A stretch of DNA of 64,000 nucleotides from Anaerolineales bacterium (GTDB lineage Bacteria > Chloroflexota > Anaerolineae > Anaerolineales > UBA4823): positions 45,542 to 109,541 of the forward strand of contig JBJYXV010000091.1 in assembly GCA_046260155.1 (NCBI GenBank). The letters are read 5' to 3'. How positions within the stretch are numbered: the stretch's first letter is position 1; each line of letters begins with the position of its first letter. The position numbers and the translations under genes were made by a program. Shown here one piece after another: positions 1 through 5,509 of this stretch. Below the pieces are notes generated by a model. The model did not search any database. It was given only the letters and a program-made list of their open reading frames with translations, and was not told the origin of the DNA.

Positions 1-237
1 ACCGCACATATGACCTGCCCTAAGCATCGTCCCATCCCCGCCCAGTGCGATCAATAAATCAAACTTGCCACCAGCGATCAGTTTACACAAATTTTCATCA
101 TCGAGCAGACCGGAGGTTACCTGAATTTCCCGCTCGCGCAAGTAGGATACAATGTGTTCTGTTTCCTGGACTGCGATGGAGATCTCGGGGTGGGGGGCGA
201 CAGCGATATGCTGAAAACCAGGTTGTTTATTCAACAT
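1..237 (-). CDS. nadK: NAD kinase, N-terminal 79 codons (gene runs off the left edge)
   Basis: Not in the ORF track. My own translation of the minus strand from ATG 237..235 gives MLNKQPGFQHIAVAPHPEISIAVQETEHIVSYLREREIQV...FDLLIALGGDGTMLRAGHMCG. It contains the GGDGT NAD-kinase signature and stays open to the window edge. Confidence 0.75.
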   Translation of the reverse strand, partial: MLNKQPGFQHIAVAPHPEISIAVQETEHIVSYLREREIQVTSGLLDDENLCKLIAGGKFDLLIALGGDGTMLRAGHMCG

Positions 238-314: not shown

Positions 315-827
315 TCAGCTCAGGGATTGGTCACAAATTGAATAAAAACCGCAATTCAAACACCGATTTTTCGATTGGTGGGACCTATCCACTGATCGCT
401 GTTTTCCAAGCGTGCGTATCTCCCGAATGAGTTGGATAACACTGTGCTCCAACTCTGGTGTGTAGTCGACAGCGATATCCTGGTTGGAATAATGTAATAT
501 ACCGTATTCTGGACGTATACCATAGGCTTGCTCGATGAGCAAGCAGTAAGCAGCTAATTGGTAGATGTGGGAATCATAAGGTTTCGATCTTGCGCGTCCA
601 GATTTTACTTCTACTGGTATTAAGCCATTTTTAGTTTCGACTATAAAATCTGGCTTACCAGTTAAATTGTAGGTGGGATCATATAATGGCGTCTCGATTT
701 TTCCCCACTCGCTATGATCGGTATAGATTAATCTCCCGGATGGTAATCCGCTGGAACGCCATTGGCGAGTGGATATCCAATAAAGAATGATCCCCAGAAC
801 TAGCAGGACAACGACCAGGTAAGGCAT
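315..827 (-). CDS. Cas4-like PD-(D/E)XK nuclease, C-terminal catalytic fragment with N-terminal TM helix
   Basis: The internal ATG at 827 (MPYLVVVLLVLGIILYWI) starts a hydrophobic helix. Downstream are GKPDFIVE (motif II), IPVEVKSG (ExK), YQLAAY (QxxxY) and the C-terminal Cys triad CLNCGFYSIC. The long ORF to 923 overlaps the upstream ORF in another frame. Confidence 0.7.
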   Translation of the reverse strand: MPYLVVVLLVLGIILYWISTRQWRSSGLPSGRLIYTDHSEWGKIETPLYDPTYNLTGKPDFIVETKNGLIPVEVKSGRARSKPYDSHIYQLAAYCLLIEQAYGIRPEYGILHYSNQDIAVDYTPELEHSVIQLIREIRTLGKQRSVDRSHQSKNRCLNCGFYSICDQSLS

Positions 828-831
828 TGGA

Positions 832-1068
832 TTATATGAGTTTGCCAGCAAGGTAAACAGCAAGCAAAACAATGGCAGCCATGAACAACCCGTATGCGAT
901 GGTGCGCAGGCACCCGCTGACAATCGCTTTGCGGGAATTTTGCAGGTGGATTCTTGTTCCCGCAGCCAGCTCTCGTTGATTTTCAGGGATATGACCCTTC
1001 CGTTGGTACCACCATGCCCGTCTGCAATAGAGGTATGTACCGATTTCGGAGGCTCGAATCGTGCTCAC
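832..1068 (-). CDS. Cas4-like N-terminal fragment (first Fe-S cysteine) with C-terminal TM helix
   Basis: IRASEIGTYLYCRRAWWYQ...GTRIH resembles the Cas4/DUF83 N-terminal helix with its conserved Cys. The C-terminus IAYGLFMAAIVLLAVYLAGKLI is hydrophobic. The GTG start overlaps the translin stop (GTGA). Confidence 0.55.
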   Translation of the reverse strand: MSTIRASEIGTYLYCRRAWWYQRKGHIPENQRELAAGTRIHLQNSRKAIVSGCLRTIAYGLFMAAIVLLAVYLAGKLI

Positions 1069-1700
1069 GATTTTTCCATTCTTTTTTCCAGCTGGGCCAT
1101 CGATTTTTCAAGGTGCTGCTGCTGTAAGCTGAGTGTGATATCACCCCTGGTCCGTTCGAGAATACTTCGTGCAATATCTGTCTGGCGGCGAATTCCCCCG
1201 GTGATTGCATTGGGGTAATCCATAGTGATCAATACTGCAAAAATATCATCCATATGCTGGAGAAGGTTTTCTGCTTCTTCAGAATATCCCAGGCGAAGAA
1301 TATCCAGGCAGCGGCGGCGAAATTCTCCCACTGATTCAGCTAAACCATTCAGGTACGCCGGATTCTCGAGTTTCAACTCCTGGGGTGTCGGCAGTTCTTT
1401 CTCAGTAATTAACGCATAGACGATATTGGCTTCTGCAAATTCCTTGAGGGCATCCTGGGTGTATCCTGCATAATAAAGATCTGGGAAGACATTCAATTCT
1501 GCCTGCAAGGATGCAACAATATTCGAAGCGCTTTCTAATTGATGCTCAGCTGCATCGAAATCGTCCCTGTGCACAGAGCGGATTGCATTCGCGCAGTGAC
1601 GGGTAAGCGTCCGCGCCTGTGAAAGGGCATGATCGCGCGCAGCGGTGCGAGTTTCAAATGCCAGGTGAATGCCTTCAGCAATCTCCGATAATTTATCCAT
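1065..1700 (-). CDS. Translin/TRAX family protein
   Basis: The 211-aa all-helical protein has a layout typical of archaeal/bacterial translin homologues: ...RDHALSQARTLTRHCANAIRSVHRDDFDAAEHQL..., YYAGYTQDALKEFAEANIVYAL, YLNGLAESVGEFRRRCLD. The family assignment is from memory of the family pattern. Confidence 0.65.
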   Translation of the reverse strand: MDKLSEIAEGIHLAFETRTAARDHALSQARTLTRHCANAIRSVHRDDFDAAEHQLESASNIVASLQAELNVFPDLYYAGYTQDALKEFAEANIVYALITEKELPTPQELKLENPAYLNGLAESVGEFRRRCLDILRLGYSEEAENLLQHMDDIFAVLITMDYPNAITGGIRRQTDIARSILERTRGDITLSLQQQHLEKSMAQLEKRMEKS

Positions 1701-1703
1701 GTT

Positions 1704-2042
1704 TTATTCCTCTGGTGGTTCTTCTGTGGGTGAGCCCGGGCGGAAGAGATAATCTGCTAATGATGATGAACCCGGGACATTAATATTTCCAAAAGAGGCT
1801 TCATAACGCTTGATATTTTCACCAAGCGCATGGAAGAGCAGCTTGGCTCCCAGAGGGGACATCACGATCCGGGTGCGAACTTTGGCAGGTTTCGTCCCGG
1901 GTAATAAGTGGGCAAAATCGAAGACCATCTCTGAAGGTGAGTGCGCGATTCTGACCAGGTTGATGTAGATTGCCTCAATATCCTCAGGGACTATCATGGG
2001 CGGCAATTTCGCTGGTTTTGGGCTCTCAGGCTGGTTGGACAT
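1704..2042 (-). CDS. DUF3467 family protein
   Basis: IYINLVRIAHSPSEMVFDFAHLL...RIVMSPLGAKLLFHALGENIKRYEASFGNI matches the remembered DUF3467 pattern. The likely start is ATG 2042 (MSNQPE), preceded by AGGAG. The ORF-track start at 2087 would run into the terminator. Confidence 0.6.
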   Translation of the reverse strand: MSNQPESPKPAKLPPMIVPEDIEAIYINLVRIAHSPSEMVFDFAHLLPGTKPAKVRTRIVMSPLGAKLLFHALGENIKRYEASFGNINVPGSSSLADYLFRPGSPTEEPPEE

Positions 2043-2088
2043 GGCTATCTCCTGATCGAAAATGGGTGGTAAATTAGTCATTTCCAAG

Positions 2089-2122
2089 GCAAAACAGGCG
2101 GAGTGTTTCCTTACCCTCCGCC
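2089..2122 (-). terminator. Intrinsic terminator downstream of ssb
   Basis: The minus strand reads GGCGGAG-12 nt loop-CTCCGCC followed by TGTTTTGC. Confidence 0.5.
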
Positions 2123-2212: not shown

Positions 2213-2629
2213 TTAGAAGGGAATATCCTCGGGTTCCGCTAATCCGGGCGAATCGTCTGCTGAATAACCACCTTCACTTTCACTTCGGGGAGTAAGAAAT
2301 CTCACTACTTCGCCTGTGATTTCATAACTTGCACCAGAGGTTCCATCCTGTCGTGTATATACTCTTGGACCCCCCGTGTCTTTATCAGGATTTAGCCTTC
2401 CTTCAACAAGAACCCGTCTTCCCTTTTTTAGATACTGGTTGCACACTTCTGCGGTTTTACCCCAGGTAGAAATCCGAAACCAGGTTGTTTCATCTACCTG
2501 GTTGCCGTCTGAGGTAGTGTACCTGCGGCTTGTTGCCACATTGAAATTTGTGACCGCTTGACCCGAAGGTGTATACCGCATTTCAGGGTCGCCACCAAGA
2601 TTGCCGATGATGATAATTTTTTGGTACAT
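2213..2629 (-). CDS. ssb: Single-stranded DNA-binding protein
   Basis: The OB-fold N-terminus is MYQKIIIIGNLGGDPEMRYTPSG...TWFRISTWGK. The acidic tail ends in the canonical DIPF. Confidence 0.9.
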   Translation of the reverse strand: MYQKIIIIGNLGGDPEMRYTPSGQAVTNFNVATSRRYTTSDGNQVDETTWFRISTWGKTAEVCNQYLKKGRRVLVEGRLNPDKDTGGPRVYTRQDGTSGASYEITGEVVRFLTPRSESEGGYSADDSPGLAEPEDIPF

Positions 2630-2771: not shown

Positions 2772-3605
2772 TTACTCGTTGCGGAATTGGAGGCAGTAAT
2801 GGTGAAAGGTATTGCTGACCCAGGCATTTCCTAACCCATAAGGCGCGAGTCGAATGTCGTCCTGGCACCATATCTTTTCATCTTTCAGGGTGTAGATATC
2901 ACCCAATTTGCTGGCCAGATCCCAGGCAAGGGGATAGATTTTTCCACCCTTCTTAATATTTTTCACGATAATTGTAATATATCCTCGCTCTACAAGATAG
3001 GGTTTTATCGCACGATAGATGCCAACTAACTTCTCAAGGAACAAATCATAATCGTGGATGTTGCCAAGATCTTCTGGATCATCGGAATACTGCAGATCTA
3101 ATTCTTGAGAATTACGCCGTTTTTGTTGGGTTTTGGCGCCTTTTGCGTGCAGCATGTCCCAATAGGGTGGTGAGGTGATCACATAATGAACCGGAGGAAA
3201 TTCATACTCAGCGAAGTATTCCGGGATATCGAGCGCATTCCCAAGAATCACATGGCAGTTCAGGTTCTCGGCACCTTCCCCTAGTCTTTCCCGCTCCTCT
3301 TGCACAGCCTGGTTGGTGATATCGATGTAAGCCTGGTTGAGCTCAATGCCAATGCTGTTGCGACCTGAACGCAAAGCCGCTACCAGGCTGCTGCCGGTAC
3401 CTACCATGGGGTCTAATATGGTCTGGCCTTCCTTGGTGAAGAATTCTATAAATTCTTGAGCCAATGTTTCCGGGAATTTCGCCGGATGGCGAATTACCCC
3501 CTTCTTGCGGGCAGGGGGAGCATGGATGAACCATGATTTCTGAAACTTCAGCCATGATTTTGGATCGAGGTTATTTAATCGGTTTTTAAAGGGGCGTTTA
3601 GCCAT
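2772..3605 (-). CDS. DNA methyltransferase (N4-C/N6-A family, SPPY catalytic motif), no cognate nuclease seen
   Basis: HPAKFPETL and the AdoMet motif I ILDPMVGTGSSLVAA lie in the N-terminal half. GNALDIP...VITSPPYWD and RAIKPYLVERGYITIIV lie in the C-terminal half. Confidence 0.8.
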   Translation of the reverse strand: MAKRPFKNRLNNLDPKSWLKFQKSWFIHAPPARKKGVIRHPAKFPETLAQEFIEFFTKEGQTILDPMVGTGSSLVAALRSGRNSIGIELNQAYIDITNQAVQEERERLGEGAENLNCHVILGNALDIPEYFAEYEFPPVHYVITSPPYWDMLHAKGAKTQQKRRNSQELDLQYSDDPEDLGNIHDYDLFLEKLVGIYRAIKPYLVERGYITIIVKNIKKGGKIYPLAWDLASKLGDIYTLKDEKIWCQDDIRLAPYGLGNAWVSNTFHHYCLQFRNE

Positions 3606-4420: not shown

Positions 4421-4483
4421 ATCTCATATGATATCAAGTATATGCCGGTCTCCTGCTTCTATTGATAAAGAATTAATGTAACT

Positions 4484-5509
4484 TCACCCCTGGTAGAACC
4501 GGCTTATGTTCGGGATCAAATATTCGCTGAATGACCGTTCGATGTCATATTCCGGTTTCCAATCCCAGTCCTGGCGGGCGTGGCTATCATTTAAATCTGC
4601 AGGCCAGGAATCGACGATTTGCTGCCGCTTGATATCTGGATCAAAAGTGATGTCTGCTTTGGGAAAGGCTTTCAGGACTTGTTGACGAAATTGTTCAGCA
4701 GTCAAACTGAAGCTGGTTACATTATAAACGTTGCGACAAAGTTCAGTTTTTGGAGCTCGGGAGAGTGCGATTAATGCAGTCACGGCATCCGGCATTGCCA
4801 TGAAAGGGATCTGGGTGTCTGGCCTGACAAATGCAGCGTAAGGTTCCTGCTTGGCAGCCGCGTGCAGCATTTCCGGGCCATAGTCGCTCGTGCCTCCACT
4901 TGGAACGGTGAAGGCGCTGATCAAACCAGGAAAGCGTACACATCGAAAATCAAGCATTTGCGGGCGTTCTGCCGCCAGCTGCCGGTAATATTCACTGAAA
5001 TAAGTTCCAAGCATTTCACAATACAATTTATTGCAGCCGTACATTGTAATTGGATAATTCCATTCCCATTCCCGGACGCGGGGAAATTTTGACTTCGTGT
5101 CCAAATCTGGCATTCCATAAGCTGCAATCGAACTGGGAAAGATGAATAAAACAGGATCACCGCGCCATTCACTTTGTTCGGAAGCCAATTGAAGCAAACC
5201 CATTGTTCCTTCGACGTTTACCTGGTGTGCAGCTACTGGTGTAAATTCAGCCCGCGTGGAAAGAAGGGCTGCCATATGATAGATGGAGTCGATCTCATAC
5301 TCACTAACCAATCTGCTTAAAAGTGATTTATCAAGTATGTCTCCTTGAATATGATGGGAATATTTTGTATATTCAGCAGGTAAAGGCCGGATATCCAGGG
5401 TAAGAAGATTGTTGTATCCCGATTCAGCTAATATTTTTACCAGCGCCAGGCCCACTTCACCACTCACTCCAGTGATTAACGTGACCTTCTTTCGCATTGC
5501 AGCCTCCAT
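4484..5509 (-). CDS. Extended-SDR NAD-dependent epimerase/dehydratase family, L-threonine 3-dehydrogenase-like
   Basis: The Rossmann motif is VTLITGVSGEVGLALV and the YxxxK motif is YGCNKLY. RFPGLISAFTVPSGGTSDYGPEM resembles the short-chain TDH signature, recalled from memory. Confidence 0.6.
   Translation of the reverse strand: MEAAMRKKVTLITGVSGEVGLALVKILAESGYNNLLTLDIRPLPAEYTKYSHHIQGDILDKSLLSRLVSEYEIDSIYHMAALLSTRAEFTPVAAHQVNVEGTMGLLQLASEQSEWRGDPVLFIFPSSIAAYGMPDLDTKSKFPRVREWEWNYPITMYGCNKLYCEMLGTYFSEYYRQLAAERPQMLDFRCVRFPGLISAFTVPSGGTSDYGPEMLHAAAKQEPYAAFVRPDTQIPFMAMPDAVTALIALSRAPKTELCRNVYNVTSFSLTAEQFRQQVLKAFPKADITFDPDIKRQQIVDSWPADLNDSHARQDWDWKPEYDIERSFSEYLIPNISRFYQG

Follow-up and report, generated by a model that had tools for sequence, protein, structure and literature searches.

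The window analysed here is a stretch of 64,000 nucleotides (nt) from an Anaerolineales bacterium of the Chloroflexota (contig JBJYXV010000091.1, positions 45,542 to 109,541). By direct reading of the sequence, its first 2.7 kb hold a set of genes on the minus strand. Four of them are the subject of this work: the genes for a DUF3467 protein (1704..2042, 112 amino acids (aa)), a TRAX-like nuclease (1065..1700, 211 aa), and two proteins that match consecutive parts of the nuclease Cas4, named here Cas4N (832..1068, 78 aa) and Cas4C (315..827, 170 aa). The original prediction for this DNA had described four minus-strand open reading frames (ORFs) that nearly abut, and the spacings it gave are those that we find. 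The DUF3467 stop codon (TAA, 1706..1704) and the TRAX start codon (ATG, 1700..1698) are separated by a 3-nt gap (AAC, 1703..1701). The TRAX stop codon (TGA, 1067..1065) overlaps the Cas4N start codon (GTG, 1068..1066) in the tetranucleotide GTGA (1068..1065). Between the Cas4N stop codon (TAA, 834..832) and the Cas4C start codon (ATG, 827..825) there are 4 nt, and the two frames differ. As for the choice of start codons, position 2042 for DUF3467 (MSNQPE..., with AGGAGA 5 nt on its 5' side) suits the homologues better than a TTG at 2087, and position 827 for Cas4C (MPYL...) suits them better than a TTG at 923. The tight junctions were found again in the closest relatives, and the TRAX/Cas4N stop/start overlap is retained in several of them. 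Profile searches also agree with the three family assignments made earlier, namely DUF3467, translin/TRAX and Cas4.

The two Cas4 proteins cover one family model between them. Cas4N matches TIGR00372 (E = 3.1e-5) at positions 2-44 of 180 and Cas4C matches it (3.1e-22) at positions 57-178 of 180, so the matches are consecutive and do not overlap. The PADLOC Cas4 models agree with this division (8e-6 for Cas4N), and Cas4C is also matched by PF01930 (1.2e-15). A PDB search with the single Cas4N sequence gave no match. The Cas4N profile found the N-termini of 8d3l and 4r5q with weak E-values of 0.035 and 0.37, and the Cas4C profile found 8d3l, 4r5q, 7mi4 and 4ic1. In the profile alignment to Cas4 8D3L, Cas4N corresponds to residues 12-53 and Cas4C to residues 102-202, and the break point falls after the His motif and before the Asp motif. 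Cas4N contains the Fe-S cysteine C15 (motif YLYCRRAWW) and the metal-site motif G37xxxH41. The PD-(D/E)XK core is in Cas4C, with D60, E73-x-K75, Q90xxxY94, H150 and the cysteines C156, C159 and C165. Aligned to solved Cas4 structures, the catalytic residues are all present, H41 on the N piece and D60, E73, K75, Q90 and Y94 on the C piece. The sequence likewise provides the four cysteines of a [4Fe-4S] cluster, C15 from Cas4N and C156/C159/C165 from Cas4C, and cluster binding is predicted. The full Cas4 ligand set is therefore divided between two chains. Among 53 sequences, C15, W19, G37 and H41 are invariant in Cas4N, and D60, E73, K75, Q90, Y94, H150, C156, C159 and C165 are invariant in Cas4C.

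Hydropathy places a transmembrane helix at the C-terminus of Cas4N (about residues 48-78) and another at the N-terminus of Cas4C (residues 1-23). The earlier description of the Cas4-like enzyme as membrane-tethered thus holds, with one helix for each half. A typical Cas4 is a single soluble polypeptide of about 160-220 aa. Because there are two ORFs here, each with a transmembrane helix, we file the pair as a variant of the family and not as a typical member.

The arrangement in the window, two ORFs 4 nt apart in different frames, is also how a recent frameshift would look. The pair could go back to a single Cas4 gene interrupted by a frameshift, by a sequencing error or through programmed recoding, and would then represent a pseudogene or one chain. 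The original prediction had called the two ORFs fragments. We scanned 80 Chloroflexota loci, taking one genome per species. The N and C pieces were separate ORFs in all 34 loci that have both halves beside TRAX, and again in all 20 further genomes from other Chloroflexota families and classes. No single ORF was found in any of these 54 genomes, which come from different assemblies and classes. The lengths are narrowly distributed (74-87 aa for N and 167-182 aa for C), and every N piece ends, and every C piece begins, in a hydrophobic helix with basic residues flanking the cytoplasmic sides. Between the N stop and the C start, 46 of 52 loci have -13 to +55 nt, often a 4-nt overlap, and the other six have 121-781 nt; more than one relative frame occurs. 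In three loci (L042 at 4465-5226, L044 and L051) a YkuD L,D-transpeptidase gene lies between Cas4N and Cas4C, which means that the halves are independent genes, and L097 has an ORF of the same YkuD-insert cluster at this place. The insert itself looks like a passenger confined to a sub-lineage. Both halves are under strong purifying selection, and Cas4C alone was called as a gene of roughly 170 aa in about 120 independent metagenomic cases. The variable spacing and frame, the intervening genes and the two ORFs in every genome rule out a sequencing error, a pseudogene and a common recoding mechanism, and we give the broken-gene explanation practically no weight. The putative fragments are instead a conserved gene pair, present in 54 of 54 loci, whose products are predicted to form an obligate two-chain enzyme.

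The fold of the reunited halves was modelled from relatives in which both pieces share a frame. When the stop codon was translated as a residue (NCBI tables 4 and 6), 12 natural fusions resulted, and their alignment was combined with N-only (trimmed) and C-only rows. The fusion from locus L003, whose N and C parts are 56% and 54% identical to the window proteins, was predicted by AlphaFold2 (AF2) with a mean predicted local distance difference test score (pLDDT) of 94.9 and a predicted template-modelling score (pTM) of 0.90; the N piece has a pLDDT of 94-97. In this model a long helical hairpin (helices 31-73 and 80-106) juts from the domain. Foldseek aligned 258-270 columns to the type I-C Cas4 8d3l, with a TM-score by target of 0.64-0.65, and to the Cas4-Cas1 structure 7mi5; further matches were the nuclease domains of Dna2 and AdnA, and ACE1. 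According to this prediction the halves together restore a single canonical Cas4 domain, carried on a membrane stalk of two helices.

In the PDB search, the TRAX-like protein matches AfTRAX of Archaeoglobus fulgidus (3zc1, E = 1.1e-19) over residues 15-189 and NEQ131 of Nanoarchaeum equitans (2.4e-11). Against the NCBIfam model NF011160 (PRK14562.1-5) it reaches 6.6e-81 and 270.8 bits, below the cut-off of 291, and against PF01997 it scores 23.7 bits, slightly under the cut-off of 25.9. The original prediction had placed possible catalytic acids in KEFAE (residues 86-90) and ESVGE (residues 122-126), and the alignment to the archaeal proteins agrees with that placement. The metal ligands of AfTRAX and NeC3PO, in the motifs ExxE and DxxxE, are matched in the alignment by E87/E90 and E122/E126; the catalytic residues of NeC3PO concerned are E82/E85/D117/E121 (PMC5100593), and one of the aligned ligands is the residue mutated in the AfTRAX structure 3ZC0. 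This tetrad, which distinguishes TRAX from translin, is invariant in all 81 Chloroflexota TRAX sequences compared. By its sequence, the gene is shown to encode a C3PO subunit of the archaeal type in which the two-metal catalytic tetrad is intact.

Two side observations concern the annotation of this family. The NCBIfam TRAX-like models PRK14562.1-1 to 1-6 are titled 'haloacid dehalogenase superfamily protein', a title unfit for a translin-fold nuclease, and the error will propagate in annotations. In addition, TRAX matches with 1-2 in-frame stops were seen mostly in small Dehalococcoidia (G132, G150, G057, G177, G168, G024, G061, G025 and G260); these may be alignments overrunning the true start or real interruptions.

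Linkage and distribution were surveyed in 301 Chloroflexota genomes and 14 control organisms. TRAX is present in 168 of the 301, as a single copy in nearly all of them and including genomes of 1.4-1.5 Mb; among the controls it was found in the archaea only. A membrane Cas4C orthologue occurs in 81 genomes, and 80 of these 81 also have TRAX (Fisher p = 4e-24, uncorrected for phylogeny), as do all 14 families with the split Cas4. The three genes TRAX, Cas4N and Cas4C lie side by side in families f1, f3 (6/6) and f20, and nearly so in f11 and f7, which makes at least 5 families with this neighbourhood, some outside the window's class. DUF3467 is found in 56 of the 301 genomes, including all 27 of the window's order. 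It stands directly upstream of TRAX in 22 of the 27 (checked directly), in the window's own genome and, by inference, in 2 more; beyond the order this adjacency was seen in one genome of a neighbouring order. The pattern of adjacency and co-occurrence therefore makes the association of TRAX with the split Cas4 the core one. DUF3467 is an order-level addition, and neither the DUF3467-TRAX link nor the TRAX-Cas4 link is obligatory. The operon linkage claimed earlier, for which a co-occurrence survey had been proposed, is thus real; the genes do not form one indivisible system, and the linkage is graded by lineage.

This graded pattern raises the question of whether the four genes are related in function at all. 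TRAX (in RNA or oligonucleotide turnover), DUF3467 and Cas4 might each act alone, lie together by lineage-specific synteny and owe their packing to genome compaction. The restriction of the DUF3467-TRAX adjacency to one order and a single neighbouring genome would fit such an explanation, as would the position of TRAX beside thiamine genes in Dehalococcoidia, the company kept by the Cas4 pair elsewhere (nadK-recN in f2, rseP in other classes) and the synteny of the entire array from ssb to recN in relatives. Mere synteny accounts less well for the TRAX-Cas4N-Cas4C adjacency in five or more families, some of them from outside the class, for the presence of TRAX in 80 of 81 split-Cas4 genomes, and for the TRAX/Cas4N stop/start overlap that several relatives retain. 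We regard unrelated neighbours as somewhat unlikely. The phyletic dependence and the recurrent adjacency suggest that TRAX handles products or substrates of Cas4.

The neighbourhoods of the two partners outside the window's lineage have features of their own. The Cas4 pair of other classes (L087, L089-L092, L099 and L100) lies directly 3' of rseP, which encodes an M50 site-2 protease with a PDZ domain, and of another membrane protein, and the next gene in these rseP-type loci is a small conserved ORF of 88-167 aa. In Dehalococcoidia and some Anaerolineae (L040, L049, L052 and L058-L080), TRAX comes after thiamine-biosynthesis genes (thiE-like and thiL/thiD-like). The next gene at these loci encodes an MBL-fold hydrolase, an H+-pyrophosphatase or a YacP-type NYN ribonuclease, not Cas4.

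The four genes belong to a longer co-directional array with the order ssb, DUF3467, TRAX, Cas4N, Cas4C, nadK, a zinc-finger-like ORF and recN. The ssb gene (2213..2629, minus strand, 138 aa) ends in the C-terminal tail ...EDIPF and matches PF00436 (1.7e-30) and TIGR00621 (3e-36). It adjoins DUF3467 directly upstream on the same strand, and it precedes DUF3467 in 38 of 80 related loci. At the other end, the 5' part of the NAD kinase gene nadK (1..237, minus strand) lies in the window, and the 290-aa ORF in locus L118 matches PF20143/PF01513. Outside the window, the same genome has a 172-aa zinc-finger-like ORF on the 3' side of nadK, followed by recN (582-aa ORF, SMC_N), both co-directional with the rest (L118). 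The Cas4C-nadK-recN order is maintained in relatives. The 172-aa ORF (L118:3892-4410) has a weak B-box zinc-finger match and overlaps the stop codon of nadK with its start; relatives L003-L017 have an ORF of 166-183 aa at the equivalent place in the nadK-recN interval.

A terminator-like hairpin follows ssb (2086..2122, minus strand) in the minimum-free-energy fold. Its 7-bp GC stem is formed by GGCGGAG (2103..2097) and CTCCGCC (2122..2116) around a 12-nt loop; in the same fold the stem is extended by pairing of an A-run with a U-run, followed by UGUUUUGCCUU. The consensus terminator scan did not report this hairpin, which was seen by folding alone, since the 12-nt loop exceeds the 8-nt limit of the scan. 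The 156-nt spacer between ssb and DUF3467 folds barely above its shuffles (z -1.8). A consensus scan of the minus strand at 2043-2212 gave no promoter-like site, and the hairpin is about 45 nt from the DUF3467 start. Strong GC hairpins, many with U-runs, occur in the same spacer of most relatives folded (n=14); of the 38 loci measured, 11 have a spacer of just 0-21 nt, which contains no hairpin. The hairpin is probably a leaky terminator or attenuator inside a longer transcription unit led by ssb. The original prediction had a terminator at 2089..2122 that insulates the unit from ssb. Its hairpin and U-run are present, but ssb is probably transcriptionally upstream of the four genes and not cleanly insulated from them.

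The DUF3467 protein is a clear member of its family (PF11950, E = 3.1e-19, 69.3 bits against a cut-off of 25, model positions 10-91 of 92). It is predicted to have three beta-strands and a long helix, with a conserved C-terminal SLADxLFRP motif and an acidic tail, and the residues Y26, N28, D42, P48, R58, A72, E81, G85, P90, L95, A96 and F100 are invariant. The AF2 model is of moderate quality (pLDDT 71.5). No PDB sequence matched the protein and the model had no Foldseek match at E <= 0.001, so no function can be proposed from structure. The literature search gave a sole paper mentioning the family, and it was irrelevant.

Several further DUF3467 loci may be recorded here. A PF01555-type DNA methyltransferase (MTase) adjoins DUF3467 in distant Chloroflexota (L102:2963-3916, L103, L104 and L116:3088-3915), divergently in family f35 and co-directionally in f52, and the MTase of the window (2772-3605) is two genes away from DUF3467. 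There may be a recurrent DUF3467-MTase link, or the proximity may be chance within a very large MTase family. One genome of the same order (L115, G282:C27) has a second, far stronger DUF3467 match (2e-34) on a short contig, where it immediately follows an rpoC-like gene; this could be a different subfamily or a contamination of the bin.

The wider genome bears on how the Cas4 pair might be used. The assembly that contains the window has 4.6 Mb and is 93% complete. It gave a single Cas4 match, and no Cas1 was found anywhere in it, so the pair is a solo-Cas4. A link with CRISPR was rejected on the missing Cas1. C3PO serves the RNA-induced silencing complex (RISC) in eukaryotes and ACE1 is a structural neighbour of the Cas4 model; an Argonaute link was nevertheless rejected, as the genome has no Piwi domain. 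A mobile or viral origin was rejected as well: the IMG/VR viral contigs contained no close relatives of TRAX or Cas4C, in a search that reaches close relatives only. In PADLOC-DB no described system was matched; the matches were to generic Cas4 and type II/orphan MTase models only, and DUF3467 and TRAX had none.

A new anti-phage or anti-plasmid defence could still be imagined, in which a membrane Cas4-like nuclease attacks entering DNA and TRAX destroys the fragments or foreign RNA. Cas4-family nucleases do act in CRISPR adaptation and with Argonautes (PMC12094033), ACE1 is among the structural matches, foreign DNA enters at the membrane face, and a DNA methyltransferase is nearby. Against these points, the DUF3467, TRAX and Cas4 genes are single-copy, conserved and flanked by housekeeping genes, outside any variable island, and TRAX is retained in minimal 1.4-Mb genomes. 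The generic PADLOC matches, the absence of Cas1 and Piwi from the genome and the lack of close relatives in viral contigs count in the same direction. The methyltransferase and a 269-aa protein, both upstream of ssb, are missing from many syntenic relatives. We therefore consider defence quite improbable; the genes are most likely a conserved chromosomal set and not a defence island or mobile system. The original prediction had read ssb and the methyltransferase as a hint at repair or defence. The ssb/recN setting favours repair or turnover, the methyltransferase is variable context, and a defence role has no support.

The explanation that we prefer, with a probability of roughly 0.55, is that the genes are a vertically inherited chromosomal module of the Chloroflexota for nucleic-acid processing, or repair, within the co-directional ssb-recN array. 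DNA repair or turnover is favoured over immunity because of the ssb and recN neighbours. The operon would be transcribed mostly by read-through of the leaky terminator after ssb, and the overlapping or nearly overlapping stop and start codons would couple translation and yield matched amounts of Cas4N and Cas4C. Cas4N (N-terminus in, C-terminus out) and Cas4C (N-terminus out, C-terminus in) would pair through their transmembrane helices and form a single [4Fe-4S] PD-(D/E)XK nuclease on the membrane's cytoplasmic side. This membrane Cas4 may cut or resect DNA ends or single-stranded DNA (ssDNA) near the membrane. The short single- or double-stranded fragments left by it could then be broken down by a soluble TRAX homo-oligomer, an activity that archaeal C3PO has in vitro (PMC5100593), and DUF3467 might be a lineage-specific accessory of TRAX or of SSB. 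A more specific version seems rather less probable. The split Cas4 would be an obligate two-chain, membrane-embedded Fe-S nuclease and the fixed partner of a bacterial C3PO in a membrane pathway of DNA/RNA degradation specific to the Chloroflexota. The active site (His on one chain, Asp/Glu/Lys on the other) and the cluster (one cysteine plus three) would form only upon pairing. Such a pathway might clear entering or membrane-proximal ssDNA and its fragments, and the assembly of the cluster or the subunits could be a switch.

Several points weigh against the processing module. TRAX and the Cas4 pair are apart in all 19 f2 genomes, where Cas4N-Cas4C-nadK-recN is intact, and in the classes f19, f35 and f56, where the pair follows rseP. 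TRAX occurs without Cas4 in 88 genomes and must therefore have a Cas4-independent role. DUF3467 and TRAX are unlinked in at least eight genomes that have both, outside one class; the neighbours of DUF3467 there are an MTase, nrdR-RNR or rpoC. Shared ancestry makes the co-occurrence statistic look stronger than it is. It is not obvious why a repair nuclease should be located in the membrane. Finally, the Cas4 model is that of a relative's artificial fusion and not of two chains. The genome (G000) offers a further, suggestive consideration. It holds three small PDDEXK_1 ORFs only (frames of 286, 227 and 249 aa) and no large AddB/RecB-type protein, and by these searches it may have no end-resection nuclease of the AddAB/RecBCD type. 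This suggests the Cas4 pair as a replacement, although the 93% completeness and the other resection routes weigh against it.

The proposal would matter in several respects. Solo-Cas4 is widespread, and a clade that is always split, membrane-anchored and phyletically tied to TRAX is a testable handle on its cellular role. If the pairing is real, two membrane proteins would jointly supply a PD-(D/E)XK active site and an Fe-S cluster, an arrangement seldom met in nature. We know of no function for TRAX beyond eukaryotic RNA interference and tRNA processing, and the Cas4 pair offers a first genomic partner for a prokaryotic TRAX; DUF3467 would gain a genomic context. Present annotations of Cas4C read 'CRISPR-associated protein Cas4' or 'Dna2/Cas4 domain-containing protein', with its status as half an enzyme unmarked.

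Among known systems, the archaeal homomeric C3POs (AfTRAX 3ZC0/3ZC1 and NeC3PO 5JR9) are closest to the TRAX-like protein. They share its fold family, similar length, single paralogue per genome and four metal-binding acids, the third being Asp in NeC3PO and Glu in Chloroflexota TRAX. The host here is bacterial. A single TRAX-like gene in Chloroflexi has been noted (Gupta et al. 2012, as cited in PMC5100593). The archaeal TRAX gene has a described linkage to SepRS (PMC5424206), whereas neither the upstream DUF3467 nor the downstream split Cas4 is reported for archaeal C3PO genes. DUF3467 (PF11950) is a family without known function, structure or literature, and its TRAX linkage is specific to the Anaerolineales.

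The Cas4 and solo-Cas4 proteins (4IC1 SSO0001, 4R5Q Pcal_0546, 8D3L of type I-C and the M. mazei Solo-Cas4) have the same motif set as the Chloroflexota pair, namely the N-terminal Cys, G..H, D, ExK, QxxxY and CxxCx5C. The predicted fold of the Chloroflexota fusion matches their structures over its whole length, and the pair, like solo-Cas4, lies outside cas loci. The Chloroflexota form differs in being two polypeptides with a transmembrane helix on each, so that the active site and the Fe-S cluster must span two membrane-anchored chains. Hudaiberdiev et al. 2017 (PMC5704561) pointed out a monophyletic clade of solo-Cas4 in Chloroflexi, and their phylogenomic study mentions neither a split nor a membrane anchor. 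In the literature searched we found no Cas4 split, membrane anchors, near-strict TRAX co-occurrence or DUF3467-TRAX-Cas4 operon, in line with the earlier statement that no described system combines these genes. The Fe-S PD-(D/E)XK domains of AddB, AdnA and Dna2 and the Argonaute-associated ACE1, grouped with the structural neighbours of the Cas4 model, process DNA ends alongside partner proteins. The Chloroflexota Cas4 differs from them in having no helicase or Argonaute partner here, in its much smaller size and in its predicted attachment to the membrane. The parts of the locus are thus already known from other systems, while the Cas4 split and the partnership with TRAX appear to be new, with a role that we infer from sequence.

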